Assembly (NCBI GenBank): GCA_035084275.1
Contig: CM068763.1
Coordinates: forward strand, 5,828,001-5,892,000
Reading direction: 5' to 3'
Length of the DNA stretch: 64,000 bases
Origin: Hydrolagus colliei
Lineage: Eukaryota
Of this stretch, positions 19,446 to 64,000 are shown one piece after another (within the stretch, counting starts at the first letter, position 1; each line of letters begins with the position of its first letter). The position numbers were made by a program, and so were the translations under genes. A model generated the notes under the pieces. It made no database searches and was not told the origin of the DNA. It saw only the letters and a program-made list of their open reading frames with translations.

Positions 19446-19528
19446 AGCAAGTAAGAAATTGGCTGATTAGTGGACTCCTTTTCCAGTGGCATCGTTTTTA
19501 TAGGCAAATTGTTGTTTTTGTTTCTTAG

Positions 19529-22500
19529 GCTCGGGGAACATCAGGAAGAGCTGGTTCCAAAACAGGAGGAGGAACATGTAGACATAGACCTCCTAGATAC
19601 CGTGAGTGAGGGCAGGCTGGCAAATCACTGTGTAATTGACAGGTTGAGGGAGCGGGTGGATTACAGAGCAGCATAGAGAGTGGCGACCAGTAACATCACA
19701 GTCACGTCCAGCGCAGCAACAAGTCCTACCCGTACAGTCCCTGCCACCTGATGCCTCACTTTCAGGAGTCTGGATAACAATTATAATAATCCTTCCATTT
19801 GAAACATTGCTTTATTACGTTATTCAGACTTCTCAAACCTATTCTCCAGTGATACTGTAAACTCTTTCCCCAAATAACCTCAAATAACCTCAGTCAGGTG
19901 TCATTGAGCTGCTGACTGGGAGTGGGGAGATGTCTAAGATCTGAGATAAAATTCACACAAACAGGAGGTGTGAGTACAATCTCTAGATAATTCCCAGCGA
20001 AAGCACACAGCAAACGTGTCTCTCTCACCCTCCTGCAGTGGAGAAGACATCCCAAGTCTCTGGATAGTTAAGGATAGTTAGAATCAAGACAGTTAGTCTG
20101 CAAACATTAATAGCTGCTTTGTATTTCAGGATAAAGAACTCTCTAACCCTCTTGAGGCCAAACGAGGCTCAAGACAACCATCAAGCCAATCCGGTGAGTG
20201 TCAGATCCAGAAACTCAATGAGTTACAGTGTGGCCGGGTTTGGACACTTGTCATTCTCCAGCTGAACCATGCAATGTCTTCAGGCAGACATGTCCGCCAA
20301 CACACAGCTGGCAGTTTCTGTCTCTTATCCAGGTCAACGGCATATCCGTGGAGATGGATGAGGCGAGCAACGAATAAGGTTTTTCGTATGATTCCGCTCT
20401 ACACAAACTCCCCCCAAATTCCATTGCATCGGACACTATCTTTCTGCCTTCACAGTTCTTTGTGAAACAAGTCATTAAAGCAATTCCTTCGGTCACCCTA
20501 CTCAAACACTGCCCTTCCCCCAGCTGCTCGGATCTTGTGTGAAGCTCTTTGAGACTTGAGTCTGTTGTGCGCGGTGTTTATGAGGGCACGTTGTTGTTGT
20601 TTGTTAGGCTAAGCACAAAACAGCTGATAACGGGGGAGAACAAAGTGATAGAGGTGGACATCCCGGAGACAGTGATTGACAGCAGGCCGGTGAGTTGCTG
20701 TTTTTGTCTAATGACACAGGGTAGCAGGGGTATTACATAGCAGCTTACACAGTGGTGATCGCCAACATACACAACAGTATCACGTCAGCATCTGTACATT
20801 CCCAGTCACTTGTCACCTCGCTGTCATAAGTCTGCATCATAATCCTTGTCTTTGATACAATCATGTTTTTGGAACATCTCAAAGCGCTTCACAGGATATA
20901 CTGTAAAGTATAGTGACTATTCTATTGGGAGAAGTGCGGCAGCCAATTTAGGCACAGTGATGTCCCACAAATAGGCAGTGCCTCGGGACTTCCTACTGAA
21001 GTGAAAAGTGCTTTACAAATGTAATTTTCTTGTTATTGGAGTGAGTGACCAATTGTATCTGGGACGTTGTTTGCCAAGGCATCAGGAGAGAAAAATTCCC
21101 TTCTATTTTCAAATTGTACCACAAGATTTATAACGTCAGTTGAAAAGGCAGATGGGAGCTCGGATTAGCATCTCTTCTAGAGAATGCAGCGCCTCCGACA
21201 ATGCAGCACTCAAGTCCCCAGCACTGCACTGATGTGTCAGTTTAAACTCTCTGATTCTAAGTCCTGATGTGGGGCTTCAACCCACAACTTTCTGACAGAT
21301 GCGTGAATCCTTCCACTAAGCCAGGCTGTTAGTGAGTAGCTGAATCTTTCACTTTGTCTTGAGGAAGAACAACAAAAAGAGGAGGAAATCAGGTAATGTA
21401 AAAATGTTTGTGACCCCAGGAGATATGCAGGAGGTGCATGGAGCTCTAGACTGTTTTGAAGCTGATTTTCAGTGACACTGTCTAATCTCTAGCAATTTCT
21501 GTCTCCACAGACATCAGTAGAAGACAGAAGGGAGGAACTCTCCAGGGGTAAGCAAAAGTCTCTGTCCGTTTCACAGTGGGTGTGATCCCCACTCAGTGGC
21601 TCCTCACCCAGTGGGGCAGGGGGTGTCTCTGCCCATCAGCTCAGGGGCTGGAGACTGTACCTGGGAACAGGAATTGCGGCTTCAGATCCCAGCGGATCCC
21701 CTCAGCTTGTCACCCTTTCCAGGGAAGTTGAACCAGCAGCATGTCTGAGAAGGTGGCATCCTGGAGGAGAAAGGGTCTTGTGTTTGCTGAGCTGCCCGGT
21801 CCAAAGGCCTGATCTCACTCCACGTTTCATTCCCCCCTCACTTCCCCCCTCCCCCACCTACACCCCCACCACACCGGAGCCTCATCTCTCATTTTGCTCC
21901 TTAACCTTGTATCCTGCTCGTATCCGAGCGAGACGTTTACGTTTGCAGAACAGTTGGTCTGGCAGGAAGGGCTTGTGTGTGGGAGGGTCATTGTCGACAA
22001 GTCTTTTTGTTTTCCCCCCAGGAGAAGAAGCAGCAGCAGCAAAGGAGAATAAGAAGAGGAAAAGATACAGTGATGCTTTCTCATGATACTCTCTGAGTGA
22101 ATCTCTCTCTCAATCTCTCTTTGACCAGGCCTTCCGCTGCCCTCCTAACTCTCCCCCCTTTCCTACTCTCCTTCCCCTGCCCCTACACCGACCCTTCCGC
22201 CCCCTGCTCGGGTCCCGACCTAACTGTTCAGCGCCTTGGGACGTCCTCCCGACGTGAAAGGCGCTCTAAAAATGTTGTCAGTGACACTCTCTTGGTGACG
22301 CTCTCAGTCGCACACTGAGGCTTATGATGGTGAAGGGCAGAGTTGGCACAGGCTTCAGCCAACATTTATTTACTGAGAAACAAAAACAGAAGTTGCTGGG
22401 AAAACCCAGCAGGTCAAGCAGCATGTATTTTGTGTTTTATTTATTTACTCAGGATCACTGTTGGTTGCTCTCGGTTACCAGGAAGACTGTTGGAGCCCAG

Positions 22501-22726
22501 GGATCGTGGACGTATTGAGGAAATGGCTGGAGCTGTGAGGGGGTTTTGTTCGATGGGAGTCAGAAAGTTTGGGGTGAAATAGGTTGAATGGGCTTGTTAA
22601 TGGACACCTCCCAGTTAATAACCAGCTGTTTCCTGTTTGTACCTCGGACTTATTGATGTTTCCTGTCATACCCACAGGAAATGCTGCTGGTGTTGATTTC
22701 CCTGGAGGAAAAAGGCTGAGGATTGA
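19529..22726 (+). pseudogene. Inverted, 5'-truncated pseudogene of the repeat-protein family, tail-to-tail with copy 1
   Basis: Homologous exons: 19529-19601; 20130-20193 (64 nt, frameshift); 20333-20373 (donor gt>at); 20608-20689; 21364-21392 (29 nt vs 45, frameshift); 21511-21547; 22022-22064 (donor gt>at); 22678-22726 (premature TGA at 22694-22696 inside the CCWCC motif). Confidence 0.8.
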
Positions 22727-24051
22727 AGGCAACAGACAATCCTCTCCTCTCCTCTGGCTGGATCGTGGCTCATCTGATCCTCTTCTCTGTGGATTATATT
22801 ATCGTTGTTATGATTATTATTATCATTCTTATTCATTTTGTTCAATTTTGGTTATGATTTGGTCCCATTTTTACACCTCAAACTCCCCTGAACAGCGGCT
22901 CAGTCCGGCTGCCTGACCTCACTTCCTGACACCCTTTTCATACACGCCAGGGTCAGGTAAGTGTATTTGCATCCTTCAGCTTGATTGTGCTCCCCGCCCT
23001 GTCTGTCTCAGGAACCTAAGCCAAACCCCCCTCATCCCCTCACTCACCCATCCCCTCCCACTTTCCTGTCTCCAATAGCCGTAGATTGAAAACAGTCGTG
23101 GATTGAAATGAGCAATTTTTATTATTGTGTTTTTTTTTGAACGGAATATTATTAGGCGTGTGGAGTAAAGAAACTTGCCCAAGGTTTCGCCCGGATCTGC
23201 TTGGATTTGAACACAGGTTTCACACTTTTAAGACCACAATAATAAGAACTGGTCATTTTCAATTCATGACTGTTTGTGGGACGCTGCTGTGCGCAATTGG
23301 CTGCCGCGTTTAGCCCACAAATATACAGTCAATTAACTTTACAGTATATTCTGTGAAGCGCTTTGAGAAATTGATAAGATCTGAAAAGCGCTATATGAAA
23401 TGCAAGGATAATTATAATAATAATAATAATTATTATTATTATTATAAGGCGAGTGCTGTAACCACTGAGCTACGGTGATATGATGGCCCCCGCGCCTGGA
23501 GCAGCAGGAACTTGTCCTCACCGGTCGCTCACTACTACACGTTGGTTTGGCCGTTGCCTCGGCTTCTCTGGCTCCTTTGTACAGAATGGAGACTTGAAGT
23601 TTCTCACCCCCCAGGGCCCACCCACAGACTATTTCCCCCGGCTTTGGTCGACAATAAACTTCGACCCTCGCTCACTGCTCTCAGTTCCCGCTCGCTCAGT
23701 TTACCCGGGTTTCTCAAGATCTTGCCGGTCACTCAGATCAGGCTTGTTCCACACCTGATGGGACTGAGACCCTCACTGACATATCTAATACATTCTGAGA
23801 TCAACCTGACACCTCAATGTGCCCAACTTCTGGCTTAACAACCTGAGATTGGTTTCTCACCGAGTCGTGGCTGGAGTTCACCCAGACCAAGGTTGTTCCC
23901 CAAGTTCAGAGTCTGGTCACAGATTACCGTCGCTGTTTAATGAGACCAGACTGGAACCTGCGCCCCTCCTCGCTCCGTTCACTCCCCGCAACCACCCAAC
24001 CAGGCGCCACAGTGAAGAGCCCATTCAGAGTTTGTCTCAAAAAAGTTAAGG

Positions 24052-24057
24052 TTTATT
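24052..24057 (-). terminator. Putative polyadenylation signal (AATAAA) of copy 1
   Basis: Minus-strand AATAAA ~290 nt after the stop codon, at the end of an AT-rich putative 3' UTR. The same site is present in copies 2 (~41269) and 3 (~57086). Confidence 0.55.
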
Positions 24058-24348
24058 ATTAATTATACTTTTTACAACAAAATGATAATGTAATGATAAT
24101 ATAATATTTGTAATAATGTGAATACATGCAATAATAATATGAAAAGTACAAAATTGTGGAATGAAAATAGTAATAAGAAACATAAAACTTAACACTCAAT
24201 ATTAATAATGCAAACTGTAGAAATGTAACTTAATGGAAACTTAACAACAATAACGATAATAATAATATAATAATAAGATGGTCCTCCAAAGATAGGAGCA
24301 GAGGAGCCACAGTCCAGCGAGAGGAGAGGAGAGGATTGTCTGTTGCCC

Positions 24349-27300
24349 TCAATCCTCAGCCCTTTTCCTCCAAGGAAAACAGCACCAGCAGCATTTTCTG
24401 TGGGTTTGAGAGGAAACATCAATGAGTCCCAGGTACAACAGGAAACAGCTGGACATTAACAGGGAGGTGTCGATTAACAAGTCCATTCAACCTATTTCAC
24501 CCCAAATATCTCCCCCTCACAGCACCAGCCGTTTCCTCAATAAGCCTCAGTGTGCAACTGAGAAAGCATCACCATGAGAGTGTCACTGTACCTTTTCTTC
24601 TTCTTCACTTTCTTTTCAGCTGCTGCTGCTCCTGGTGGGAAAGTAAAAAGACTTGTTGACAATGGGCCTCCCACACGCGAGCCATTCCCGCCAGACCAAC
24701 TGTTCTGCAAACCTAAAGGTCTCACTCGGCTACGAGCAGGATTCGAGGATTAGGATCAAAATGATTAAGAGACGAGGCTCGAGTAGAGGAGAGAATGAAA
24801 CGCGGAGTGAGATCAGGCCTTTGGACCGGGCAGCTCAGCAAACACAAAACCCTTTCTCCTCCAGGATGCCACCTTCTCAGACATGCTGCTGGTTCAACTT
24901 CCCTGGAAAGGGTGACAAGCTGAGGGGATCCGCTGGGATCTGAAGCCACAATTCCTGTTCCCAGGTACAGTCTCCAGCCCCTGAGCTGATGGGCAGAGAC
25001 ACCCCCTGCCCCACTGGGTGAGGAGCCACTGAGTGGGGATCACACCCACTGTGAAACGGCCAGAGACTTTTGCTTACCCCTGGAGAGTTCCTCCCTTCTG
25101 TCTTCTACTGATGTCTGTGGAGACAGAAATTGCTAGAGATTAGACAGTGTCATTGAAAATCAGCTTCAAAACAGTCTAGAGCTCCGTGCACCTCCTGCAT
25201 ATCTCCTGGGATCATATCATTTTTTACATTACCTGATCACTCTGTCTCTCCTGTACTTCCTCCTTCGACTGTTCTTCCTAAAGACAAAGTGAAAGCTTCA
25301 GCCACTCGCTCACAGCCTGGCTTAGTGGTACCATTCAGGCACCTGTCACAAAGTTGTGGTTTGAAGCCTTTGATTGTACCAAAGGCAAGGATTATTATGG
25401 TAATCATTATTATCCAGACTTATGACAGCGAGGTGACAAGTGACCGGCAATGTACAGGTGATGACGTGATACTGTCGTGTATGTTAGCGAGCACCACTGT
25501 GTAAGCTGCTATGTAAAACCCCCGCTACCCCGTGCCCTTAGACAAAAACAGTAACTCACTGGCCTGCCGTCAAGCATTGTCTCCGGGACATCCACATGAA
25601 CCTCCTCGTTCTCCCCCGTCAACAGCTCTTCCAGCTTTGTGCTAAGTCTAACAAACAACAATTTTCCCTTAAAAACAATTCTGCTCAGAAACAACCGACT
25701 CGGGTTTCAAGGCACTTCACACAGTTATTGGGAGCTCCGAGCAGCCGGGGGAAGGGCAGGGTTTGAGTAGGGCAACTGAAGGAACTGCTAAAATGACTTG
25801 TTTCTCAAAGAACTGTGAAGGCAGAAAGATAGTGTGCAAAGCAAAGGAATTTGGGGGGAGTTTGCGTAGAGCGGGGACATAGGAAAACCCTTACTTGCTG
25901 CTCGCCTTGTGTGTCTCCAGGGAGATGCTGTTGAGCTGGAGAAGAGACAGAAAGGAAAGGATTAACTGCCGGCTACGCCCTGGAGGACATGTCTGTCTAA
26001 AGACATTGCATGGTTCAGCTGGAGAATATCAAGCATCCAAAGCACCGGTGAAGAGTTTTGAGAAGTCTGAATAACATAATAAAGCAATGTTTCAAATGGG
26101 AGGATTATTATAATTATTATCCAGACTCCTGAAAGCGAGGCGTCAGGTGGTGGGACTTGTTGCTGCGCTGGACGAGACTGTGATGTTACCGGTCGCCACC
26201 ATCTATGCTGCTCTGTAAACCACCCGCTCCCACGACCTGTCAATTACACAGTGACTTGCCAGCCTGCCCTCACTCACGGTATCGTGGAGGTCCATGTCTA
26301 CATGTTCCTCCTCCTGCTCTGGAACCAGCTCTTCCTGATGTTCCTCCAGCCTAAGAAACAACAATAACAATTCGCCTGTGAAAACGATGTCACTCACATT
26401 GTGCTCAGGTCTCAAAGACCTTCACTTACATTCCAGGAGCTATCATCAGCTGGGCAAAGGGCAGGTTTTGCGCAACATTGCCAGGTTCCGCAACTATCTT
26501 ACCCCCCGCGCTGCCGAAACACTTGTGCATGCTTACATCACCTCACGGCTGGATTATGGAAATTCTCTCCTAGTCGGCCTCCCCAATTCCTCCATTCATA
26601 GGCTGCAGGCCATCCAAAACTCTGCAGCCCGTGTACTATCCCGCACCAGCCTCCGTGACCACATAACCCCCACCCTCGCCCGTCTCCACTGGCTCCCCAT
26701 CCTCCAGAGGATCAAGTTTAAGATCCTCGTCCTCACCTACAAGGCCTTACACGGCCTTGCCCCATCCTACCTAACCGATCTACTCTCCCCCTACACGCCC
26801 ACCCGGACCCTCCGTTCAACAGGACTTGGCCTGCTCCAAACCCCCCGCCCGAACCGCCCCACCATCGGAGGCCGGGCCTTCAGTTTCTCCGCTCCCACCT
26901 TATGGAATGCCATCCCTCAATCCCTCCGTTTCGCCTCTTCACTTTCCTCTTTCAAGGCCGATTTGAAGACTTTCCTCTTCGATCGTGCCTTTTGTTCTAC
27001 CCCGAACTCCTTTACCTCCCCTTCGTGTTTCACCCCTTCCCAAACACTCCCCTCCCAGCTCGGGTCACACGCCTCTTGTTCAGCGCCTTGGGACGTCCTC
27101 CCGACGTGAAAGGCGCTCTATAAATGTAATTTGTTGTTGTTGTTGTTGTTTGAGGATAGTGAACAAAGGAATGGCCAAAGTCATTAGATTCTAAGAGAAC
27201 TTTGAAAGAGAAGGTCCAAGGCAGAGGGATTTTGTGCAAAGTGGGAAGATAGAAAAAACCTTACGTGCTCCTTGTCTCATCCCTCTCCTCAGCAAAGCTG

Positions 27301-30300
27301 TTGACCTGGAAAAGAGACAGAAAAGAAAAGGATTAGCTGCCGGTAAGGCACTGGTGGACATGTCTGTCTGAAGACATTGCAGGATTGGGCTGGAGAATGT
27401 CAAGCATCCAAACCCGGCTGCGCTGTAACTCCATGAGTCTCTGGGTCTGACACTCACCAGGTTGGCTTGAGGCTCCTCCTTAGCCTCAGTTGGCCTCTCC
27501 AACTCCTGGTCAGTTGTAGGGAGTTCTTTTTCCTGAAAAGATAGCAGCTGTTAGTGTTTGCAGACTAACTGTCTTCACTCTAACTATCCTTAACTATCCA
27601 GAGACTTGGGATGTCTTCTCCACTGCAGCAGGGTGAGAGAGACACGTTTGCTGTGGGCTTTCGCTGGAAATTTTCTAGAGATTGTACTCACACCTACTGT
27701 TTGTGTGAATATCGTCCTGGATCATATATATCTCCACACTCCCATTCAGGAGCTCAATGAGACCTGACTGAGGTTTAAAATTGAGGAAAGAATTTACAGT
27801 ATCACTGTTGAAGAGGTTTGAGAAAGCTGAATAACATAATAAAGCAATGTTTTAAAAAATGGAAGGATTATTATAATTATTATCCAGACCCCTGAAAGTG
27901 AGGTGCCAGGTGGCAGGGACTGTACGGTGGGACTTGTTGCTGTGCTGGACGTGACTGTGATGTTACCGGTCGCCACCATCTGTGCTGCTCTGTAAACCAC
28001 CCGCTCCCTCAGCCTGTCAATTACACAGTGACTTGCCAGTCCTGGCCTCACTCACGGTATCTATGAGGTCCACATCTACGTGTTCCTCCTCCTGTTTTGG
28101 AACCAGCTCGTTCTGATGTTCCCCGAGCCTAAGAAACAACAACAATTTGACTATAAAAACGATGTCACTAACATTGGACTCAGGTCTCAAAGAGCTTCAC
28201 ACAGATTACGGGAGCTACGAGCAGTCGGGCAAAGATTTGAGGATAGTGAACAAAGGAAAGGCCAAAGTCATTAGATTATGAGAGAACTTTGAAAGAGAAG
28301 GTCCAAGGCAGAGGGATTTTGTGCAGTGGGGAGATAGAAAAAACCTTACGTGCTCCTCGCCTCATCCCTCTCCTCAGTAAAGTTGATGACCTGGAAAAGA
28401 GACAGAAAAGAAAATGATTAGCTGCCGGTAAGTCACTGGTAGACATGTCTGTCTGAAGACATTGCAGGATTCGATTGGAGAATGTCAAGCATCCAAACCC
28501 AGCTGCGCTGTAACTCCATGAGTCTCTGGGTCTGACACTCACCAGGTTGGCTTCAGGTTCCTCCTTAGCCTCAGTTGGCCTCTTCAACTCCTGGTCAGTT
28601 GTAGGGAGTTCTTCATCCTGAAATGCAAAGCAGCTGTTAGTGTTTGCAGACTAACTGTCTTCACTCTAACTATCCTTAACTATCCAGAGACTTGGGATTG
28701 TCTTCTCCACTGCAGCAGGGTGAGAGAGACACGTTTGCTGTGGGCTTTCGCTGGGAATTTTCTAGAGATTGTACTCACACCTCCTGTTTGTGTGAATATC
28801 GTCTTGGATCATATATATCTCCACACTCCCATTCAGGAGCTCAATGACACCTGACTGAGGTTTAAAATTGGGGAAAGAATTTACAGTATCACTGGTGAAG
28901 AGGTTTGAGAAGGCTGAATAACATAATAAAGCAATGTTTTAATAAATGGAAGGATTATTATAATTATTATCCAGACTCCTGAAAGTGAGGTGTCAGGTGG
29001 CAGGGACTGTTCGGTGGGACTTGTTGCTGCGCTGGACGTGACTGTGATGTTACTGGTCGCCACCATCTATGCTGCTCTGTAATCTACCCGCTCCCTCAGC
29101 CTGTCAATCACACAGTGACTTGCCAGTCCTGGCCTCACTCACGGTATCTATGAGGTCCACATCTATGTGTTCCTCCTCCTGTTTTGGAACCAGCTCGTCC
29201 TGATGTTCCCCGAACCTAAGAAACAACAACAATTTTCCTATAAAAACGATGCCACTAACATTGGACTCAGGTCTCAAAGAGCTTCACAGATTCCGGGAGA
29301 TACGAGCAGTCGGGCAAAGATTTGAGGATAGTGAACAAAGGAACGGCCAAAGTCATTAGATTCTGAGAGAACTTTGAAAGAGAAGGTCCAAGGCAGAGGG
29401 ATTTTGTACAAAGTGGGGAGATAGAAAAAACCTTACATGCTCCTCGCTTCATCCCTCTCCACTGCAAAGCTAATGACCTGGAAAAGAGACAGAAAGGAGA
29501 GGATTAGCTGCTGGCAAGGCACTGGTGGACATGTCTGTCTGAAGATATTGCAGGATTGGCCTGGAGAATGTCAAATCTTCAAACCCAGCCACGTTGTGAC
29601 CTGGTGTGTCTAGGTATGACACTCACCACTTCGGCTTGATGCTGGTCTTGATCCTCTTGTGGCATTGCCAATTCAAGGTGAAGAGGAGAAGAGTGTTCTT
29701 CATCCTAAAACACAAAGCAACTGTTATTGTAAGCGGACTTGGTGTCTTGAATCTAACTATCCATAACTGTCCAGAGCATCTCTAAAGCAGCAGAGAGTGT
29801 CTAGTTTGCTGAGCGGTTTCTGTGTGTTTTAGCTGGAAATCAACTGGAAAGTGTAATCCCCTTTTTTTGTGGGACATTGATCAGCCAATGTATCAAATGC
29901 AAACATGACTATTACTTTTATTATTATTATTATTATTATTATTTGTATTGGCTGATTGGAGGGCTTCAAAAGTAGGGATCCCGTGCACCTTTTTAGCATT
30001 ACTGCTTGCTGAGAAAGAAATGGATTGTAATTCAGCCTGGCTCCCAGTCACACATGGTCAGGATCACAGCGATCCTTGCCCACCAGACCACAACAACATC
30101 AAATGATATTTTTGTAGAGCATTTCCTGTCTGGAGGACATCACAATACACGAAAGACAGTGAGCTTCCTATGGGAAATAGTTTACAGTAACTCCGGAGAA
30201 GCACTTTGAGAAATCGGAAAGACATGATAAGTGTATCAAATGGAAGGATTCTAGTTCAAATAATTACTATCCAGACTCCCAATATCAAGATGACAGATGA

Positions 30301-32563
30301 CAGGGATTGTACGAGTGGTACGTGGTGCTGCGCTGGATGTGACTGTTACCAGCGAACACCATCTATACTGCTCTGTAAAATGCCTACTCCCGCGGCCCAT
30401 CAGTTACACAACCACTCGCCCGCCTGCCCTCACTCACGGTCTCTGTGACATCAATCACTTGTGTGACCTCCTTCTCCGGCACCTGGTCTTCCTCTTCCAC
30501 GTTATTCCTGAGCCTAACAAACAACAACAACATAAACACTGCGGCTCTATTGCACTCACGTTCCAAAGAGCTTCACACAGACACCGAGAGTTCGGAGCAG
30601 CCGGGAGACGGGCAGGGTTTGAGGATAGCAAGCAAAGGAACAGCCAAATTGACGAGTTTCTGAGCGAACGTTAAAGGCAGAAAGAGCAGGTCAGAGGCAG
30701 AGGGGTTTGGGGGGAGTTTGTGGAGTGTGGGGACAAAGCAAAAACCTTACTTCTTCCTCGCCTCATCCCTCTCCGCGGCAATGGTCTTGACCTGGAACAG
30801 AGACAGAAGGGAAAGGATCAGCTGCTGGCAAACACACAGCTGCCGTATTTGTCTAAAGACATTGCAGGATTGGGCTGGAAAATGTCAAAGCTACAAACCC
30901 AGCTGCCCTGTAACTCGGTGAGTCTCTGTCTGACACTCACCACTTTGACCTGCTGTTCAAGGGCCTCTTGCGCCATCACCAGCTGCAAGTCGAGCGGCGA
31001 AGAGATGCCTTTTTCCTGAAACACAAAGCAGCTGTTAGTGCGTGTGGACTCAGCACCTTGATGCTAATGATCCTTAACTATTGAGAGCTTTGGGATGTCC
31101 CATCCACTGTAAGGGAATGAGAGGATCTAGTTTCCGGTATTGTTTCTGTGTGTTTTTCCTGGAGATTCACTGGGGATTGTCCTCCCTCCTCCTCCTCCTG
31201 TAGCCTCTCAGATCAGGGAAAACTCCACACTCCCGAGACATTCTTCTGGGTATCCCACTCAGGAACTCAATGCCACCTGAGACACACTTGCCAGCCTCCC
31301 ACTGACTGGGATGGTAGCTGTCAGTGTCCAGCAGTGCATTTGGATCAGGAATTGCCATGTGCTGGATGCCGGAGGGGGAGTCCCAAGTAAAGCTGGGGCT
31401 TATGTATGTGTTCCATTGGCTAGTTCAGTGACCGATGTGGACCCATGTCTCCCAATGACTGTCTCTCATTCACTCCTTGGATGTTTGTGGGACACTGCTG
31501 TACGCAACCGGACGACGTGATCAGCCACTGAACCAAATACAAGGATTATTGTTGTTACCTGGTTGGAGGGGGGGGATAACAAAAATTCCCAGCACCGTGC
31601 AATCATTATTTCTTCTTCCTGAGGAGAAAATAATGGATTGTCATTCAGCCTGGCTCCCAGTCAGGTGGTCAGACACATGGCCCTCCTCACCCAGCAGACC
31701 ACAGCAACAATAAATTACATGACTTTCAAACGCACAAAAGACAGTGAGAATAATTTGGGAAATAGTTTACAGTATCCCTGCTGAAGCGCTTTGAGATGCC
31801 TGAATGACCTGATGAGGCGCTGCATCAAATGGAAGGATTAATATTGTAAGAATTATGATCCATACTCCCCACAGGGAGGAAGGAGATAGGTGAAAGGGAT
31901 TGTACAAATGAGATGTGTTGCTGCGCTGGACGTGACTGGGATGTTACCGGTCACCACTGTCTACGCTATTCTGTAAATTGCCAGCTCCCTCGGTCCGTCA
32001 TTTACACAGTGACTTGCCCGCCTGCTCACTCACGGTCAGTGGGAATGTCATTCGTTGAGATGCTTGTTCCTCCCCTCCTTTTTCAGCATTCTGTTGCCTA
32101 ACAAACAACAACAAATTGCCATGATAAACAAAGATGTTAATATTGGTTTCAAATAACTACACAGATACCGGGAGCACCGAGCAAGGGATGGCTACGGTTT
32201 GAGGAATAAGTGATTAGTTTCTGTGGAGTGTCTAAAGGTAGAAACATAGAGTTTGAGAAAAAGGGATTTGAGTTTGCGGAGTTGTTTCAAAACCTTTACC
32301 TGCTCTTCTCCTCCCTCTCCGCTTCGATGCTCTTGACCTGCAGCAAAGACACAAAGGAGAGGATTAGCTGCTTGCAAGGCCCTGGCGACAATTTCTGCCT
32401 GAAGACATCGCAGGATTGGGCAGGAGAATGTCGAGTCTCCAAACCCGGCTGAGCTGTAACTCACTGAGTCTCTAGGTCTGAAACTCACCAGGTTCGCTTG
32501 GCGCTCCTCTTCCTCCTGAGCCCATGCAAGCGCCAGGTCAAGATTGTCCAGATGCTGTTCTTC
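24349..32563 (-). CDS. Multi-exon gene, copy 1: acidic tandem-repeat protein (>=412 aa, N-terminus unresolved) with C-terminal polybasic/Cys-rich tail
   Basis: Hand-spliced exons in transcription order: 32489-32563, 32300-32337, 32034-32097, 30941-31015, 30751-30791, 30438-30513, 29627-29704, 29437-29477, 29143-29215, 28543-28617, 28350-28390, 28056-28128, 27458-27532, 27265-27305, 26278-26350, 25895-25935, 25560-25647, 25233-25277, 25078-25114, 24592-24631, 24349-24397. All have AG acceptors (several with a CTAAC branch point and pyrimidine tract) and all internal junctions have GT donors (mostly gtgagt/gtaagg). The 1239 nt form one frame: EEQHLDNLDLALAWAQEEEERQANLVKSIEAEREEKSR...DEELPTTDQELKRPTEAKEEPEANLVINFTEERDEARSTLGEHQNELVPKQEEEHVDVDLIDT...TSVEDRREELSRGAAAAEKKVKKKKRKCCWCCFPWRKRAED*. 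Confidence 0.85.
26473..27149 (+). mobile_element. Young 5'-truncated L2 insertion in an intron of copy 1, antisense to the gene
   Basis: Open C-terminal frame LHWLPILQRIKFKILVLTYKALHGLAPSYL and (TTG)n tail. Empty site in copy 2 at ~43685. Confidence 0.93.
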
Positions 32564-33869
32564 CTGAAATACGAAGCTGCTGTTAGTGTGTACGGACTCC
32601 ATGTCTTAACTCAAAGCTGTTCCTCTGCTCAGTGGGCACCGGCCAACTTTGTGTCGCCTGCCCTGCTCTTTATTGATTCAAACCCGCAGCTCAGCCATGG
32701 TTGAAATGGATTGTCTTGAGAAGGGACATGAAGAAGGCAAGACCGTGGGTAAAATGGAGGGATTGTGGGTCAAAACTCCACAATGTGGGGGCAGAGATCT
32801 CAATGCTCGAGAGCTAAGGGTAGGGCAGCAAATACTTTGAACCTGATGTCCACCGAACGGAGGAAGCAGACAGACTGATTTGGGACTAAGACATCAGAGG
32901 AGCAAGAACATGGAAAGCTTTGAAGCTTGGAATGAAGTATTGAATGAGCAGCAGTGAAGACGGGCAAGGATGTGAGGGATCGGTTTGCGGAGCTTGGCAA
33001 CGAATGGGACATGAGCTGCAGAGTTATGAATAATCTGCAGTTTCTAGAGGGAGAGTTGTGAAGTCAAGTGAGCAGGAAGTTGGCAAAGTCAAACATGTCT
33101 CCTGTATGGTGTTTGTGGGAAACCTCTGTGTGCAACTGATTGCCATATTTCGCCCGAAAATACACCGTCACTACACTTCACAGTATATCCTTGACAATGT
33201 GATTGGTGATATTTCAAATTATATTACCTCATTGGATGCATCCGGGAATTTCTCCAAATGCTCCCTCAACGATAGTTTTTCCTGAGAAAGAAATGGATTG
33301 TCATTTAGACTGAATCCACCCCAGTCAGACGGTCAGGCACACGGCCCTCCTCATCCAGCAGACAGTGACAATACTGTGGGAAATGGTTTTAATATTGATT
33401 TTTCCTGATTCTGACCCAGACTCTAATGTCATTCAACAGATCACTGGCCTTGGACATTCCCAGACTGACGGGCTGTGTACATGGGCAGTGAGAGTGCGAG
33501 ATCTCCTGAACTGTGTCTGGGTGTTGGGGTGTGAATATTGACTTATTGACTGGACACTGTACACCCTGCCGCACCCCTTGCTGTGTGTTGGAGGAGCCTC
33601 TCAGATCAGGGAGATCTCCACACTCCCCGGCCACTGTCCTGTGCGTCACAGTCAGGGGCTGAATAACAACTATTTAAATTTGCCGCCATATGTCCCAGAA
33701 TGTGTGTCAGGCCCAGGACATCCTGTGATGGGACTGTCAATAACCTCTCATCTCTTTCCCCCTCCCAAGCCCCGCCCATGCACTCACTTTGGGACGTGGT
33801 TTCTCCTCCTTTGCCTGTGAGCGCTCTGACATGCTGTCTGGCTTGGAAGGCCCAAAGTAAATAGGAGGC

Positions 33870-33992
33870 TTTGTTGTTGTTGTTTTTGTAGCAGTAGTAG
33901 TAGTTGTAGTTGATGTTGTAGTTGATGTTGTAGTTGTTGTAGTTGTTGTAGTTGTTGTAGTTGTTGTTGATGTTGTAGTTGTTGTTGTTGTC
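33870..33992. repeat. Compound (GTT/GTA/GAT)n microsatellite
   Basis: Seen directly; shorter allele at ~50027-50117 in copy 2. Confidence 0.9.
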
Positions 33993-34109
33993 GTCAGTTC
34001 TCTGGCCTCCAGGTTTGTAAGGCTGAAGAGAGATTATAATAATAATGATAATAATCCTGGCTGCTTCCTGTTTCTTCTATTCTTGATGTTGTGCAGTCAC
34101 TGCTTTTAC

Positions 34110-41570: not shown

Positions 41571-44500
41571 TCAATCCTCAGCCCTTTTCCTCCAATGAAA
41601 ACAGCACCAGCAGCATTTTCTGTGGGTATGAGAGGAAACATCAATGAGTCCCAGGTAGAACAGGAAACAGCTGGACATTAACAGGGAGGTGTCGATTAAC
41701 AAGTCCATTCAACCTATTTCACCCCAAATATCTCCCCCTCACAGCACCAGCCGTTTCCTCAATAAGCCTCAGTGTGCAACTGAGAAAGCATCACCATGAG
41801 AGTGTCACTGTACCTTTTCTTCTTCTTCACTTTCTTTTCAGCTGCTGCTGCTCCTGGTGGGAAAGTAAAAAGACTTGTTGACAATGACCCTCCCACACGC
41901 GAGCCATTCCCGCCAGACCAACTGTTCTGCAAACCTAAAGGTCTCACTCGGCTACAAGCAGGATTCGAGGATTAGGAGCAAAATGATTGAGAGACGAGGC
42001 TCGAGTGGAGGAGGGAATGAAACGCGGAGTGAGATCAGGCCTTTGGACCGGGCAGCTCAGCAAACACAAGACCCTTTCTCCTCCAGGATGCCACCTTCTC
42101 AGACATGCTGCTGGTTCAACTTCCCTGGAAAGGGTGACAAGCTGAGGGGATCCGCTGGGATCTGAAGCCACAATTCCTGTTCCCAGGTACAGTCTCCAGC
42201 CCCTGAGCTGATGGGCAGAGACACCCCCTGCCCCACTGGGTGAGGAGCCACTGAGTGGGGATCACACCCACTGTGAAACGGACAGAGACTTTTGCTTACC
42301 CCTGGAGAGTTCCTCCCTTTTGTCTTCTACTGATGTCTGTGGAGACAGAAATTGCTAGAGATTAGACAGTGTCATTGAAAATCAGCTTCAAAACAGTCTA
42401 GAGCTCCGTGCACCTCCTGCATATCTCCTGGGATCATATCATTTTTTACATTACCTGATCACTCTGGCTCTCCTGTACTTCCTCCTTCGACTGTTCTTCC
42501 TAAAGACAAAGTGAAAGCTTCAGCCACTCGCTCACAGCCTGGCTTAGTGGTACCATTCAGGCACCTGTCACAAAGTTGTGGTTTGAAGCCTTTGATTGTA
42601 CCAAAGGCAAGGATTATTATGGTAATCATTATTATCCAGACTTATGGCAGCGAGGTGACAAGTGACCGGCAATGTACAGGTGATGACATGATACTGTCGT
42701 GTATGTTAGCGAGCACCACTGTGTAAGCTGCTATGTAAAATCCCCGCTACCCCGTGCCCTTAGACAAAAACAGTAACTCACTGGCCTGCCGTCAATCACT
42801 GTCTCTAGGACATCCACGTGAACCTCTTCGTTCTCCCCCATCAACAGCTCTTCCAGCTTTGTGCTAAGTCGAACAAACAACAATTTTCCCTTAAAAACAA
42901 TTCTGCTCAGAAACAACCGACTCGGGTTTCAAGGCACTTCACACAGTTATTGGGAGCTCCGAGCAGCCGGGGGAATGGCAGGGTTTGAGTAGGGCAACTG
43001 AAGGAACTGCTAAAATGACTTGTTTCTCAAAGAACAGTGAAGGCAGAAAGATAGTGTGCGAAGCAAAGGAATTTGGGGGGAGTTTGCGTAGAGCGGGGAC
43101 ATAGGAAAACCCTTACTTGCTGCTCGCCTTGTGTGTCTCCAGGGAGATGCTGTTGAGCTGGAGAAGAGACAGAAAGGAAAGGATTAACTGCCGGCTACGC
43201 CCTGGAGGACATCTCTGTCTAAAGACATTGCATGGTTCAGCTGGAGAATATCAAGCATCCAAAGCACCGGTGAAGAGTTTTGAGAAGTCTGAATAACATA
43301 ATAAAGCAATGTTTCAAATGGAAGGATTATTATAATTATTATCCAGACTCCTGAAAGCGAGGCGTCAGGTGGTGGGACTTGTTGCTGCGCTGGACGAGAC
43401 TGTGATGTTACCGGTCACCACCATCTATGCTGCTCTGTAAACCACCTGCTCCCTCAACCTGTCAATTACACAGTGACTTGCCAGCCTGCCCTCACTCACG
43501 GTATCGTGGAGGTCCACATCTAAATGTTCTTCCTGCTCTGGAACCAGCTCGTCCTGATGTTCCCCGAGCCTAAGAAACAACAACAACAATTTGCCTATGA
43601 AAAATATGTCACTCACATTGTACTCAGGTCTCAAAGACCTTCACATACATTCCAGGAGCTATCAGCTGCTGGGCAAAGGGCAGGGTTTGAGGACAGTGAA
43701 CAAAGGAACGGCCAAAGTCATTAGATTCTGAGAGAACTTTGAAAGAGAAGGTGCAAGGCAGAGGGATTTTGTGCAAAGTGGGGAGATAGAAAAAACCTTA
43801 CGTGCTCCTCGCCTCATCCCTCTCCTCAGTAAAGCTGATGACCTGGAAAAGAGACAGAAAAGAAAAGGATTAGCTGCCGGTAAGGCACTGGTGGACATGT
43901 CTGTCTGAAGACATTGCAGGATTGGGCTGGAGAATGTCAAGCATCCAAACCCGGCTGCGCTGTAACTCGATGAGTCTCTGGGTCTGACACTCACCAGGTT
44001 GGCTTGAGGCTCCCCCTTAGCCTCGGTTGGCCTCACCAACTGGTCAATTGTTGGGTGTTCTTTATCCTGAAATACAAAGAAGCTGTCAGTGTTTGCAGAC
44101 TAACTGTCTTCACTCTAACTATCCTTAACTATCCAGAGACTTGGGATGTCTTCTCCAATGCAGCAGGGTGAGAGAGACACGTTTGCTGTGTGCGTTTGCT
44201 GGGAATTATCCAGAGATTGCACTCACAACTCCTGTTTGTGTGAATATCGTCTTCGACCATATATCTCTCCACACTCCCAGTCAGGAGCTCAACGAGACCT
44301 GACTGAGGTTTAAAATTTGGGAAAGTATTTACAGTATCACTGGTGAAGAGGTTTGAGAAGTCTGAATAGCGTAATAGAGCAATGTTTCAAATGGAAGGAT
44401 TATAATTATTATCCAGACTCCTGAAAGTGAGGCGTCAGGTGGCAGGGACTGTACGGTGGGACTTGTTGCTGCGCTGGACGTGACTGTGATGTTACCGGTC

Positions 44501-47500
44501 GCCACCATCTATGTGGCTCTGTAAACCACCCGCTCCCTCAGCCTGTCAATTACACAGTGACTTGCCAGCCTGCCCTCACTCACGGTATCTAGGAGGTCCA
44601 CATCTAAATGTTCTTCCTGCTCTGGAACCAGATCGTACTCAGTTGGCCTCTTCAACTCCTGGTCAGTTGTAGGGAGTTCTTTATCCTGAAATGCAAAGCA
44701 GCTGTTAGTGTTTGCAGACTAACTGTCTTCACTCTAACTATCCTTAACTATCCAGAGACTTGGGATTGCCTTCTCCACTGCAGCAGGGTGAGAGAGACAC
44801 GTTTGCTGTGGGCTTTCGCTGGGAATTTTCTAGAGATTGTACTCACACCTCCTGTTTGTGTGAATATCGTCTTGGATCATATATATCTCCACACTCCCAT
44901 TCAGGAGCTCAATGACACCTGACTGAGGTTTAAAATTGGGGAAAGAATTTACAGTATCATTGGTGAAGAGGTTTGAGAAGGCTGAATAACGTAATAAAGC
45001 AATGTTTTAATAAATGGAAGGATTATTATAATTATTATCCAGACTCCTGAAAGTGAGGTGTCAGGTCGCAGGGACTGTACGGTGGGACTTGTTGCTACGC
45101 TGGACGTGACTGTGATGTTACTGGTCGCCACCATCTATGCTGCTCTGTAAACCACCCACTCCCTCAGCCTGTCAATCACACAGTGACTTGCCAGTCCTGG
45201 CCTCACTCACGGTATCTATGAGGTCCACATCTATGTGTTCCTCCTCCTGTTTTGGAACCAGCTCGTCCTGATGTTCCCCGAACCTAAGAAACAACAACAA
45301 TTTTCCTATCAAAACGATGCCACTAACATTGGACTCAGGTCTCAAAGAGCTTCACACAGATTACGGGAGATACGAGCAGTCGGGCAAAGATTTGAGGATA
45401 GTGAACAAAGGAACGGCCAAAGTCATTAGATTCTGAGAGAACTTTGAAAGAGAAGGTCCAAGGCAGAGGGATTTTGTACAAAGTGGGGAGATAGAAAAAA
45501 CCTTACATGCTCCTCGCTTCATCCCTCTCCACCGCAAAGCTAATGACCTGGAAAAGAGACAGAAAGGAGAGAATTAGCTGCTGGCAAGGCACTGGTGGAC
45601 ATGTCTGTCTGAAGATATTGCAGGATTGGCCTGGAGAATGTCAAATCTTCAAACCCAGCCACGTTGTGACCTGGTGTGTCTAGGTATGACACTCACCACT
45701 TCGGCTTGATGCTGGTCTTGAGCCTCTTGTGGCATTGCCAATTCAAGGTGAAGAGGAGAAGAGTGTTCTTCATCCTAAAACACAAAGCAACTGTTATTGT
45801 AAGCGGACTTGGTGTCTTGAATCTATCTATCCATAACTGTCCAGAGCATCTCTAAAGCAGCAGAGAGTGTCTAGTTTGCTGAGCGGTTCCTGTGTGTTTT
45901 AGCTGGAAATCAACTGGAAAGTGTAATCCCCTTTTTTGTGGGACATTGCTGTGCACAGCTGCCTGCAAAGTTTCATCCACGAAATACACTTTATAGTAAC
46001 TCCAATGAAGAGCTGTGAGACGTCTGGGATAACATGATCAGCCAATGTATCAAATGCAAACATGACTATTACTTTTATTATTATTATTATTTGTATTGGC
46101 TGATTGGAGGGCTTCAAAAGTAGGGATCCCGTGCACCTTTTTAGCATTACTGCTTGCTGAGAAAGAAATGGATTGTAATTCAGCCTGGCTCCCAGTCACA
46201 CATGGTCAGGATCACAGCGATCCTTGCCCACCAGACCACAACAACAACATCAAATGATATTTTTGTAGAGCATTTCCTGTCTGGAGGACATCACAATACA
46301 CGAAAGACAGTGAGCTTCCTATGGGAAATAGTTTACAGTAACTCCGGAGAAGCACTTTGAGAAATTGGAAAGACATGATAAGTGCATCAAATGGAAGGAT
46401 TCTAGTTCAAATAATTACTATCCAGACTCCCAATATCAAGATGACAGGGATTGTACGAGTGGTACGTGGTGCTGCGCTGGATGTGACTGTTACCAGCGAA
46501 CACCATCTATACTGCTCTGTAAAATGCCTACTCCCGCGGCCCATCAGTTACACAGCCACTCGCCCGCCTGCCCTCACTCACGGTCTCTGTGACATCAATC
46601 ACTTGTGTGACCTCCTTCTCCGGCACCTGGTCTTCCTCTTCCACGTTATTCCTGAGCCTAACAAACAACAACAACATAAACACTGCGGCTCTATTGCACT
46701 CACGTTCCAAAGGGCTTCACACAGACACCGAGAGTTCCGAGCAGCCGGGAGACGGGTAGGGTTTGAGGATAGCAAGCAAAGGAACAGCCAAATTGATGAG
46801 TTTCTGAGCGAACGTTAAAGGCAGAAAGAGCAGGTCAGAGGCAGAGGGGTTTGGGGGGAGTTTGTGGAGTGTGGGGACAAAGCAAAAACCTTACTTCTTC
46901 CTCGCCTCATCCCTCTCCGCGGTAATGGTCTTGATCTGGAACAGAGACAGAAGGGAAAGGATCAGCTGCTGGCAAACACACAGCTGCCGTATTTGTCTAA
47001 AGACATTGCAGGATTGGGCTGGAAAATGTCAAAGCTACAAACCCAGCTGCCCTGTAACTTGGTGAGTCTCTGTCTGACACTCAACACTTTGGCCTGCTGT
47101 TCAAGGGCCTCTTGCGCCATCACCAGCTGCAAGTCGAGCGGCGAAGAGATGCCTTTTTCCTGAAACACAAAGCAGCTGTTAGTGCGTGTGGACTCAGCAT
47201 CTTGATGCTAATGATCCTTAACTATTGAGAGCTTTGGGATGTCCCATCCACTGTAGGGGAATGAGAGGATCTAGTTTCCTGTATTGTTTATGTGTGTTTT
47301 TCCTGGAGATTCACTGGGGATTGTCCTCCCTCCTCCTCCTCCTGTAGCCTCTCAGATCAGGGAAAACTCCACACTCCCGAGACATTGTTCTGGGTATCCC
47401 AGTCAGGAACTCAATGCCACCTGACACACACTTGCCAGCCTCCCACTGACTGGGATGGTAGCTGTCAGTGTCGAGTAGTGCATTTGGATCAGGAATTGGC

Positions 47501-48706
47501 ATGTGCTGGATGCCGAAGGTGGAGTCCCAAGTAAAGCTGGGGCTTATGTATGTGTTCCATTGGCTAGTTCAGTGACCGATGTGGACCCATGTCTCCCAAT
47601 GACTGTCTCTCATTCACTCCTTGGCTGTTTGTGGGCATTGCTGTACGCAACCGGACGACGTGATCAGCCACTGAACCAAATACAAGGATTATTGTTGTTA
47701 CCTGGTTGGAGGGGGAGGATAACAAAAATTCCCAGCACCGTGCAATCATTATTTCTTCTTCCTGAGGAGAAAAAAATGGATTGTCATTCAGCCTGGCTCC
47801 CAGTCAGGTGGTCAGACACATGGCCCTCTTCACCCAGCAGACCACAGCAACAATAAATTACATGACTTTCAAATGCACAAAAGACAGTGAGAATAATTTG
47901 GGAAATAGTTTACAGTATCCCTGCTGAAGCGCTTTTAGATGCCTGAATGACCTGATGAGGCGCTGCATCAAATGGAAGGATTAATATTATTAGAATTATT
48001 ATCCACACTCCCCACAGCGAGGAAAGAGATAGGTGAAAGGGATTGTACAAATGAGATGTGTTGCTGCGCTGGACGTGACTGGGATGTTACCGGTCACCAC
48101 TGTCTACGCTATTCTGTAAATTGCCAGCTCCCTCGGTCCGTCATTTACACAGTGACTTGCCCGCCTGCTCACTCACGGTCAGTGGGAATGTCATTCGTTG
48201 AGATGCTTGTTCCTCCCCTCCTTTTTCAGCATTCTGTTGCCTAACAAACAACAACAAATTGCCATGATAAACAAAGATGTTAATATTGGTTTCAAATAAC
48301 TACACAGATACCGGGAGCACCGAGTAAGGGATGGCTACGGTTTGAGGAATAAGTGATTAGTTTCTGTGGAGTGTCTAAAGGTAGAAACATAGAGTTTGAG
48401 AAAAAGGGATTTGAGTTTGCGGAGTTGTTTCAAAACCTTTACCTGCTCTTCTCCTCCCTCTCCGCTTCGATGCTCTTGACCTGCAGCAAAGACACAAAGG
48501 AGAGGATTAGCTGCTTGCAAGGCCCTGGCGACAATTTCTCCCTGAAGACATCGCAGGATTGGGCAGGAGAATGTCGAGTCTCCAAACCCGGCTGAGCTGT
48601 AACTCACTGAGTCTCTAGGTCTGAAACTCACCAGGTTCGCTTGGCGCTCCTCTTCCTCCTGAGCCCATGCAAGCGCCAGGTCAAGATTGTCCAGATGCTG
48701 TTCTTC
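41571..48706 (-). CDS. Multi-exon gene, copy 2 of the repeat-protein family (two splice-site changes; possibly an altered isoform or an early pseudogene)
   Basis: Exons 48632-48706, 48443-48480, 48177-48240, 47085-47159 (donor GT>TT at 47084), 46895-46935, 46582-46657, 45697-45774, 45507-45547, 45211-45283, 44584-44685 (fused exon), 43995-44066, 43802-43842, 43500-43569, 43117-43157, 42782-42863 (shifted acceptor), 42455-42499, 42300-42336, 41814-41853, 41571-41619. All exon-length changes versus copy 1 are multiples of 3. Ends KCCWCCFHWRKRAED*. Confidence 0.72.
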
Positions 48707-51700
48707 CTGAAATACGAAGCTGCTGTTAGTGTGTACGGACTCCATGTCTTAACTCAAAGCTGTTCCTCTGCTCAGTGGGCACCGGCCAACTTTGTGTCGC
48801 CTGCCCTGCTCTTTATTGATTCGAACCCGCAGCTCAGCCATGGTTGAAATGGATTGTCTTGAGAAGGGACATGAAGAAGGCAAGACCGTGGGTAAAATGG
48901 AGGGATTGTGGGTCAAAACTCCACAATGTGGGGGCAGAGATCTGAATGCTCGAGAGCTAAGGTTAGGGCAGCAAATACTTTGAACCTGATGTCCACCGAA
49001 CGGAGGAAGCAGACAGACTGATTTGGGACTAAGACATCAGAGGAGCAAGACCATGGAAAGCTTTGAAGCTTGGAATGAAGTATTGAATGAGCAGCAGTGA
49101 AGACAGGCAAGGATGTGAGGGATCGGTTTGCGGAGCTTGGCAACGAATGGGACATGAGCTGCAGAGTTATGAATAATCTGCAGTTTCCAGAGGGAGAGTT
49201 GTGAAGTCAAGTGAGCAGGAAGTTGGCAAAGTCAAACATGTCTCCTGTATGGTGTTTGTGGGAAACCTCTGTGTGCAACTGATTGCCATATTTCGCCCGA
49301 AAATACACCGTCACTACACTTCACAGTATATCCTTGACATGTCTTGACAATGTGATTGGTGATATTTCAAATTATATTACCTCATTGGATGCATCCGGGA
49401 ATTTCTCCAAATGCTCCCTCAACGATAGTTTTTCCTGAGAAAGAAATGGATTGTCATTTAGACTGAATCCACCCCAGTCAGACGGTCAGGCACACGGCCC
49501 TCCTCATCCAGCAGACAGTGACAATACTGTGGGAAATGGTTTTAATATTGATTTTTCCTGATTCTGACCCAGACTCTAATGTCATTCAACAGATCACTGG
49601 CCTTGGACATTCCCAGACTGACGGGCTGTGTACATGGGCAGTGAGAGTGCGAGATCTCCTGAACTGTGTCTGGGTGTTGGGGTGTGAATATTGACTTATT
49701 GACTGGACACTGTGTACACCCTGCCGCACCCCTTGCTGTGTGTTGGAGGAGCCTCTCAGATCAGGGAGATCTCCACACTCCCCGGCCACTGTCCTGTGCG
49801 TCACAGTCAGGGGCTGAATAACAACTATTTAAATTTGCCGCCTTGTGTCCCAGAATGTGTGTCAGGCCCAGGACATCCTGTGATGGGACTGTCAATAACC
49901 TCTCATCTCTTTCCCCCTCCCAAGCCCCGCCCATGCACTCACTTTGGGACGTGGTTTCTCCTCCTTTGCCTGTGAGCGCTCTGACATGCTGTCTGGCTTG
50001 GAAGGCCCAAAGTAAATAGGAGGCTTTGTTGTTGTTGTTTTTGTAGCAGTAGTAGTCGTTGTAGTTGATGTTGTAGTTGTTGTAGTAGTTGTTGATGTTG
50101 TAGTTGTTGTTGTTGTCGTCAGTTCTCTGGCCTCCAGGTTTGTAAGGCTGAAGAGAGATTATAATAATAATGATAATAATCCTGGCTGCTTCCTGTTTCT
50201 TCTATTCTTGATGTTGTGCAGTCACTGCTTTTACCTGATGATCCCACCCTCTCTTCAGCCCCAACGGACAATCAGATGATTCCCCACAAACCCATCGCCG
50301 GGTCTGACATCACAATCCCCCCCCTGTGATACCCTGGGGTGTCAGCCTGGAGACATCATCGTCTGACCCCACCCACATCAACAGCCAATAGACAGCTCTG
50401 CCATCACAATACCCCGTTAACATGTGACTCACAGAGGAGAAAATGATCCCACATTTTTGCAGCATTTCAAACTGTCAGCAACAAAAACACATTACATTTG
50501 TACAGCACCTTTCATGTCAGGAGGACATTACAAATCATCAACTCCTCCTAATTTCATTCCTGAATGGCCCAGCCCTAATTATAAGATGACGACCCCTGGT
50601 TCTAGATTCCCTCACCAGTGGAAATAGTGTTTGTAACCACCTTATCAAAACATCTATAATCTTTTGTGTCGATCCTTGTCAAATATCTTCTGAAAGTTCA
50701 TATAAACAACATCCATCGACACTATTATCCACTAATTCAGTGACCACCTCAAAAAAATCTAACTGAATTAGTTAGACACAATCTACACTTCTCAAACCTA
50801 ACTCTTTCACAAGCTCATACCTCTCCAAGTGTTCACTAATGTTTTGACGGGTGATGGATAACCCCGTTGAGCTGTGACTCACAGAGGAGAAAATGTACCC
50901 ACATTTTCTAATATTTCAATAACAGTTAAAACTGACAGCAACAATATTAACGTGGAGTCCTGTAGCTCAGTGGTTAGAGCACTCACCATTTAATTGAGAG
51001 ACCTGGGTTCAATTCCAGGCAGGGCGAAACCTTATTAGGCGTGTGGAGTAAGTTTTGTTGCTCCACACGCCTAATAATAATCTCTAAAAAAGCAATAATA
51101 AATTGGTCATTTCAATCGACTGTTTGTGAGACACTGCTGTGTGCAATTGGCTGTCGCGTTTGGCCACATAAATACAGTAAAATCACGTTATAGTATATTC
51201 TGTGAAGCACTTTGAGACGTCTAGAAGACGTGAAAAGCACTATATCACATGCTAGCATTATTATTATTACATTTTTATAGCACCTTTCACATTGGGAGGA
51301 CGTCGCAAATCGTAATGGATATTTCAAAGCTGCTCCATACAATCAAGGCCGCGCACTCCAGAGAAATCTGTTCTTAAGGCTTTTGAATAAAAACACAGAA
51401 ACAGGAGTTGGTCATTCAGCTCTTCGAGCGTGTTCCTCCATTCTATAAGATTTAGGCTGATCTGTTAGCTTCAGTCCAATTACAGTATCCAGTTATAATT
51501 TGTATCTTGGTGGAGTCCTGTAACTCGGTGCTTAGAGGAATCGCTTTACAAGCGAGAGACCTGTGTTCAAATCCAGGCAGAATGAAACTTTGGGCAAGTT
51601 TCCGTTCTGCCCAAACCTAATAGTAATACCTCCTAAAAATTAAATGAATTAATTGAATACTACATAAATCATTACTAGTTTATAAATCATAATTAATAAA

Positions 51701-63909: not shown

Positions 63910-64000
63910 CTGGAACAGAGACAGAAGGGAAAGGATCAGCTGCTGGCAAACACACAGCTGCCGTATTTGTCTAAAGACATTGCAGGATTGGGCTGGAAAA

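Follow-up and report, generated by a model that had tools for sequence, protein, structure and literature searches.

An unannotated, recently duplicated and expanding gene family, as judged from its sequence, occupies much of the window (the whole stretch of 64,000 nucleotides that was analysed), and its predicted product is an acidic repeat protein that ends in a short C-terminal tail, where a polybasic patch is followed by a CCWCC cysteine cluster. By analogy with known lipid-anchored proteins, this tail is probably a membrane anchor: the basic and aromatic residues would dock on acidic membranes, the cysteines would be S-acylated and the disordered acidic arm would lie in the cytosol. The anchor type itself is already known, being textbook matter, and a specialist would find little surprising in the tail by itself; here it is predicted on an unannotated, expanding gene family, for which no relatives were found with exon-sized queries. 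The tail represents the only functional clue to this multi-copy, fast-rearranging vertebrate gene family, and predicts a cytosolic membrane location for its products.

The tail was initially assigned to the last two exons of the copy referred to here as copy 1. The coordinates are exact, and the spliced frame, across a junction predicted from splice signals, reproduces the proposed tail. The features at the 3' end of copy 1 are as follows:

24631-24592, minus strand: exon H, 40 nt, phase 1 in and phase 2 out, encoding an Ala linker and the lysine run (polybasic patch and NLS pattern)
24398..24591, minus strand: last intron, 194 nt, GT-AG, with a modest donor (AAG/GTACAG)
24397-24349, minus strand: terminal coding exon T, with the CCWCC cluster, Phe/Trp, a second basic patch and the TGA stop; acceptor CACAG, phase 2
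24052..24057, minus strand: predicted polyadenylation signal, the first AATAAA past the stop, giving a 3' UTR of about 290 nt

Exons H and T join in phase 2 and in frame, and the phases of exons G, H and T match exactly in the copy 1 model. The occurrence of the CCxCC tail in three copies is above chance expectation: among the 2606 stop-terminated 16-mers in the six frames of the window, CCxCC is present in four, three of which are the gene copies and the fourth a (TGT)n microsatellite.

With a rough matrix, both sites of the last intron score low (1.2 for the H donor, 2.3 for the T acceptor). An in-frame alternative acceptor at 24448 (minus strand) outscores the modelled T acceptor by the same rough matrix, and its use would separate the lysine run from the unchanged cysteine cluster by 17 additional residues, partly hydrophobic; acceptors 24448 and 24397 both yield an identical cysteine frame. 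Retention of the last intron is predicted to leave a basic, Cys-free C-terminal end, and the frame of exon T is altered if exon H or G is skipped. The contigs of run X1 over 23950-26450 span introns, and none of their seven listed joints matches a modelled intron; as intron-containing contigs from a run of unspecified kind, they neither support nor contradict the modelled splicing. Among the 402 contigs, 63 are alike at 99% or more, 89 at 95-99%, 177 at 90-95% and 73 under 90%, a spread that hints at further paralogues, while depth gives no copy number. One of these contigs, with 28 letters on its shorter side, skips 157 bases at 24463-24621, which include most of exon H, and corresponds either to a paralogue lacking the basic run or to an alignment artefact. 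Indels in exon H, among copies and X1 contigs, amount to 3 nt in total.

The full copy 1 model consists of 24 coding exons on the minus strand, from the ATG at 33832 to 24349, and encodes 465 amino acids. Upstream of exons H and T it comprises:

33788..34022, minus strand: exon holding the predicted start codon, an ATG at 33832 with A at -3; an (ACA/ACT)n microsatellite, open as a Thr run, lies before this ATG
33228..33281, minus strand: exon D1
25560..32563, minus strand: the acidic arm, made of six A-B-C three-exon modules and exon D2, with phases 0-0, 0-2 and 2-0; the sixth module is without A
25078..25277, minus strand: linker exons F (25277-25233) and G (25114-25078)

In all 24 modelled exons the AG acceptors and GT donors are where expected and the phases are consistent. 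The frame is open over 465 codons, with 16 and 28 stops in the other two frames, and none of 2000 base shuffles was open, a test that is optimistic because an open frame was partly a criterion in choosing the exons. Moreover, the length differences between paralogous exons are all multiples of 3, and dN/dS between modules ranges from 0.18 to 0.75, below 1 in each of the ten pairs (which are not independent). These in-frame length changes and dN/dS values support a real coding gene, in which exon D2 and the 5' end are modelled with the least certainty. At the 5' end, the microsatellite (33833-34022 in copy 1 and 49988-50147 in copy 2, minus strand) reads, in the frame of the start ATG, as a run of Thr and varies in length from copy to copy. 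No upstream leader exon that is ATG-led, hydrophobic and in the right phase was found in copies 1 and 2 (donors scoring at least 3, about 3.5 kb and 1.2 kb scanned). A degenerate D-type exon that has lost its donor lies at 30008-29916 (minus strand). Furthermore, a duplicated 260-bp block (34155-34416, 35132-35393 and 50280-50541) carries TGAGTCA, ATTGG and GGGTGGGG motifs, which we take to be promoter-like; within it, an AG...GT stretch of 39 nt resembles the D exons, has an ATG in frame and could be an alternative first coding exon.

From a biochemical perspective, the 465-residue protein is acidic (pI 4.5, 21% Glu, 1.7% Gly) and built of low-complexity repeats, with a net charge of -77 over the 437 residues of the body and of +8 in the tail. 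Four of its five cysteines are within the CCWCC cluster (residues 452-456), and the rest of the protein is nearly free of Cys and aromatic residues. The most basic 20-residue window (+11, from residue 443) contains the cysteine cluster, and the most membrane-interfacial 8-mer, which starts at 452, overlaps it on the Wimley-White interfacial scale. The maximum 19-residue hydropathy is 0.54, with no transmembrane or signal segment in the 465-aa model, and the body lies in the disordered region of the charge-hydropathy plot. The tail is not a CaaX box, as already stated in the initial annotation, since the last four residues are RAED in all three copies, and myristoylation is excluded by Ser as residue 2. 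The basic run is also a classical NLS pattern, K[KR]x[KR], with four overlapping matches in residues 443-451, a feature absent from that earlier reading.

If the tail is an anchor, the newly made soluble protein would use its two basic patches and Trp/Phe to dock on anionic membranes, at the Golgi (PI4P) or at the plasma membrane (PS/PIP2), and a zDHHC enzyme would then S-acylate some of the four cysteines, trapping the protein on the cytosolic face of post-Golgi or plasma membranes. The negatively charged repeat arm would be repelled from the bilayer and could serve as a spacer or a repeated binding scaffold, its length differing among copies by gain or loss of whole modules. Given the four NLS-pattern matches in the lysine run, the unacylated form should be nuclear, and the anchor model too predicts that a Cys>Ser mutant would go to the nucleus, as for R7BP, CK1G3 and PLSCR1. 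The original proposal of an S-palmitoylated polybasic anchor is partly supported by the anatomy of the tail and by published palmitoylated tails of like layout, and loses the support drawn from the three copies; the long acidic arm tethered by its C-terminus agrees, at the level of prediction, with the charge of the body, with the +11 window of the tail and with the failure to find a transmembrane segment or a leader. The suggested targeting to the inner leaflet of the plasma membrane is instead too specific, given that CK1-gamma, with such a tail, is on post-Golgi puncta.

With its many LINE fragments, the window has the character of vertebrate genomic DNA, and its repeat types give the impression of a cartilaginous fish. 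Self-comparison of the window reveals three minus-strand copies of one gene region, together with an inverted partial copy and a degenerate fragment. Besides copy 1, these are:

41571..49987, minus strand: copy 2, 432-aa model, tail exons at 41853-41814 and 41619-41571
57384..64000, minus strand: copy 3, which runs off the window end, with the frame open through 17 exons and tail exons at 57669-57627 and 57432-57384
19485..22833, plus strand: inverted partial pseudogene, with the H and T equivalents at 22022-22064 and 22678-22726 and a repeat insertion in the last intron
55335..56706, minus strand: degenerate module fragment between copies 2 and 3, from self-comparison

The tail of copy 2 differs from that of copy 1 by a single substitution, Pro>His, and the tail of copy 3 is identical, with one extra Ala codon upstream of it. 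The conservation claimed for the three copies is thus factually right, but it carries no weight as support. Intron divergence from copy 1 is 1.36% for copy 2 and 1.44% for copy 3, and the changes expected in the 89-nt tail are 1.2 and 1.3, against 1 and 0 seen (probability of so few 0.66 and 0.28); since zero to one substitution is expected neutrally at about 1.4% intron divergence, three-copy conservation is no evidence of selection. Furthermore, the odd-one-out copy changes along the alignment of the three copies, a mosaic look that suggests exchange between copies, which are therefore not independent. It was also correctly noted that a stop breaks the tail only in the pseudogene, where TGA replaces the fourth Cys and, in addition, the donors of the B and H equivalents are changed from GT to AT. 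The pseudogene, which is older, keeps a basic run, made of other residues, and over G-H-T the comparison with it gives a pN of 0.079 and a pS of 0.232 (small counts, 7.7 and 5.3 changes); as to selection, this comparison appears slightly more useful than that of the three copies.

Other differences among the copies were observed. Of the 88 bases of exon C6 (25560-25647 and 42782-42869), 7 differ between copy 1 and copy 2, compared with 1.4% in introns, and in the 3' UTR of copy 3, 19 of 279 positions differ. In copy 2, a chimeric exon (44685-44584, minus strand; 102 nt, phase 0-0, in frame) joins, through a deletion, the 5' half of A4 to the 3' half of C, and the A2 donor is mutated from GT to TT (47084, minus strand). 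The C6 acceptor is changed from AG to CG in copies 2 and 3 (42869/58685, minus strand), with an in-frame AG 6 nt downstream. Both the deletion-fused exon and the lost C6 acceptor are rescued in frame; nevertheless, the mutated splice sites of copies 2 and 3 may point to partial decay of the family. Copies 1 and 3 share a LINE fragment in their B5-C5 intron (26471-27150 and 59507-60180) that copy 2 lacks, tRNA-like Rfam matches at paralogous positions (37115-37186 and 50956-51027, plus strand) are probably SINE heads, and an assembly gap of about 200 N is found at 10262-10461.

Relatives were searched for with exon-sized or exon-plus-intron queries rather than with the spliced protein, and for this reason a no-homologue result is weak evidence. 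In protein searches, no relative emerged from the 1616 candidates of the A-exon profile, from the five of the tail profile or from the single candidate of the first-coding-exon 40-mer, while a 26-position A profile gave no matches against 1.84 billion representatives and the A profile none in the PDB. Pfam returned no matches for 15 of 16 exon peptides (20-45 aa, too short for sensitivity), only sub-cut-off low-complexity matches for the sixteenth, and no families for the two tail peptides at E up to 5. In the ESM Atlas, the tail query gave no usable match and the exon C6 query gave unnamed short clusters at 0.90 or less. A degenerate DNA pattern for the tail had no viral matches, and its four metagenome matches were discarded as shadow-frame reads of other long ORFs, on contigs that are rich in GC and gave no blastn match with the window. 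The likeness of the tail to IGFBP1 (two PDB matches sharing CWC) is not significant at E 0.17-0.22, and a thyroglobulin-type CWCV likeness was rejected at E 0.17. Exon A1 has a UIM/MIU-like look, for which Pfam gave no support. In a literature search for a described family of this sort, none was apparent by title among the papers listed, and one may still be in print.

The main rival explanation, which is possible albeit unlikely, is that of a nuclear acidic protein, in which the lysine run would be an importin-alpha NLS, the body a chaperone of histones or other basic proteins and the cysteines unacylated, a layout like that of the nuclear acidic chaperones prothymosin and nucleoplasmin. The four K[KR]x[KR] patterns at 443-451, the disordered body of net charge -77 and the basic, Cys-free end left by last-intron retention are all compatible with it, and the polybasic stretch of R7BP is described as an NLS in the available part of that study (PMC2048962). 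However, this explanation does not account for the CCWCC and Phe/Trp that directly follow the basic run, given that the protein has almost no other Cys or aromatics and that, as described for R7BP, CK1G3 and PLSCR1, it is the unacylated form that is nuclear (PMC2171691, PMC9254030, PMC10371867). A tail not made as modelled, owing to another last exon, to intron retention or to young copies being silent or decaying, is rather improbable: the matching phases of G, H and T, the Cys frame shared by acceptors 24448 and 24397, the downstream AATAAA, pN below pS in the comparison with the pseudogene and the 3 nt of exon H indels have to be set against the modest splice scores of the last intron, the mutated A2 donor (copy 2) and C6 acceptor (copies 2 and 3), the nearby pseudogene and fragment, and the frame shift of exon T upon skipping of H or G.

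In structural proteins of the skin, sperm or egg-case type, a cysteine-containing end can provide cross-links. It is quite improbable that the cysteines of the tail similarly form disulphides at the cross-linking end of a structural protein, or bind metal in a small Zn site, even if four Cys fall in five residues and the repeated Glu/Gln-rich body is like structural proteins in composition only. In fact, the CCxCC spacing is that of known acylation motifs, as the available texts describe them (PMC3974213, PMC10371867), the upstream scan of copies 1 and 2 found no signal peptide and the sole PDB likeness, the CWC of IGFBP1, is non-significant (E 0.17-0.22). Very improbable indeed is a secreted or luminal mucin-like protein, with a coding Thr run, an unseen upstream signal-peptide exon and a tail that is not cytosolic. 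In copies 1 and 2 the Thr run contains no stop and shares the frame of the ATG, and there is a weak Pfam Mucin match (E 0.014, below cut-off), but the run belongs to a class of trinucleotide microsatellites that is common across the window, and no upstream donor scoring at least 3 gives an ATG-led hydrophobic leader in phase in either copy.

The membrane anchor remains the preferred reading. A broader proposal, advanced tentatively and unlikely to hold in full, is that an expanding, lineage-restricted family has built a paralemmin-like acidic arm independently from a three-exon module, and that the tail is an acylation-switched NLS which distributes the protein between the roles of membrane spacer or scaffold and nuclear acidic chaperone. 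The palmitoylated form would then be held on membranes as an adjustable charged spacer or multivalent scaffold, while depalmitoylation or retention of the last intron would send the protein to the nucleus as an acidic chaperone. If true, this would be a convergent R7BP-type switch placed on acidic disordered arms that naturally form a length series.

The comparison of the tail with published systems is made on text descriptions, in the available parts of the papers cited. Adjacent cysteines by a C-terminal basic stretch, with neither a transmembrane segment nor a CaaX box, are found here as in CK1-gamma and R7BP-type anchors. In CK1G3, three C-terminal Cys beside a basic stretch are needed for localization to post-Golgi puncta, the protein being nucleocytoplasmic without them, and the authors' model involves basic docking on PI4P followed by palmitoylation (PMC9254030). 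The two share a Cys cluster and a basic stretch in the last ~20 residues and the lack of a transmembrane segment; CK1-gamma, however, is a kinase with three Cys and the basic stretch downstream, whereas here four Cys have basic residues on both sides and follow a disordered acidic arm, with low-complexity repeats in place of a kinase domain (no Pfam match among the exons scanned). In R7BP, a polybasic stretch precedes two palmitoylated Cys (PMC2171691) and allows shuttling to the nucleus (PMC2048962). The same order of C-terminal polybasic stretch and adjacent cysteines is seen here, and here too the polybasic stretch is an NLS pattern; unlike in R7BP, where an R9AP-like central domain binds RGS7-Gbeta5, neither such a domain nor such a partner is evident, as compared by description.

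Paralemmin is reported, in the available text, as an acidic, Glu-rich, hydrophilic protein (pI 4.7-4.9) with few Cys and aromatic residues, which ends in a CaaX box and is prenylated (PMC2148134). The acidic, Glu-rich, hydrophilic body (pI 4.5 here) and the basic cluster before a C-terminal Cys cluster are common to both; in contrast to paralemmin and other prenylated anchors, the present protein lacks a CaaX box, ends with RAED nine residues past the last Cys and is built of repeated exon triplets. For the paralemmin domain itself, the Pfam scan covered 16 exon peptides of 20-45 aa, a length that limits sensitivity, and 15 of them gave no match. In PLSCR1, CCCPCC holds the protein on membranes, and without these Cys it is cytosolic and nuclear (PMC10371867). 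The CCxCC spacing is like that of the CCPCC motifs of PLSCR1 and PI4KII-alpha (PMC10371867, PMC3974213), which are, however, internal, in folded enzymes or barrels, as far as the available descriptions go. The yeast CYSPD proteins are soluble and held on membranes only by a palmitoylated C-terminal Cys cluster (PMC10840359), the same putative sole membrane hold proposed here; CYSTM/CYSPD proteins are described as 60-150 aa long and Pro/Gly-rich (PMC10840359), whereas this one has 465 aa and its tail peptides have no Pfam match to a CYSTM domain. Finally, as regards the arm, the Olduvai domain of NBPF is an exon doublet, with no lipid-anchor tail described in the available part of the source, while the module here is a triplet, and 10 A/C exon peptides are without Pfam match. 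The likeness to NBPF/Olduvai is architectural, with no sequence match: in both, disordered domains encoded by multi-copy genes grow through tandem modules of several exons (bioRxiv 10.1101/2021.07.06.450945).
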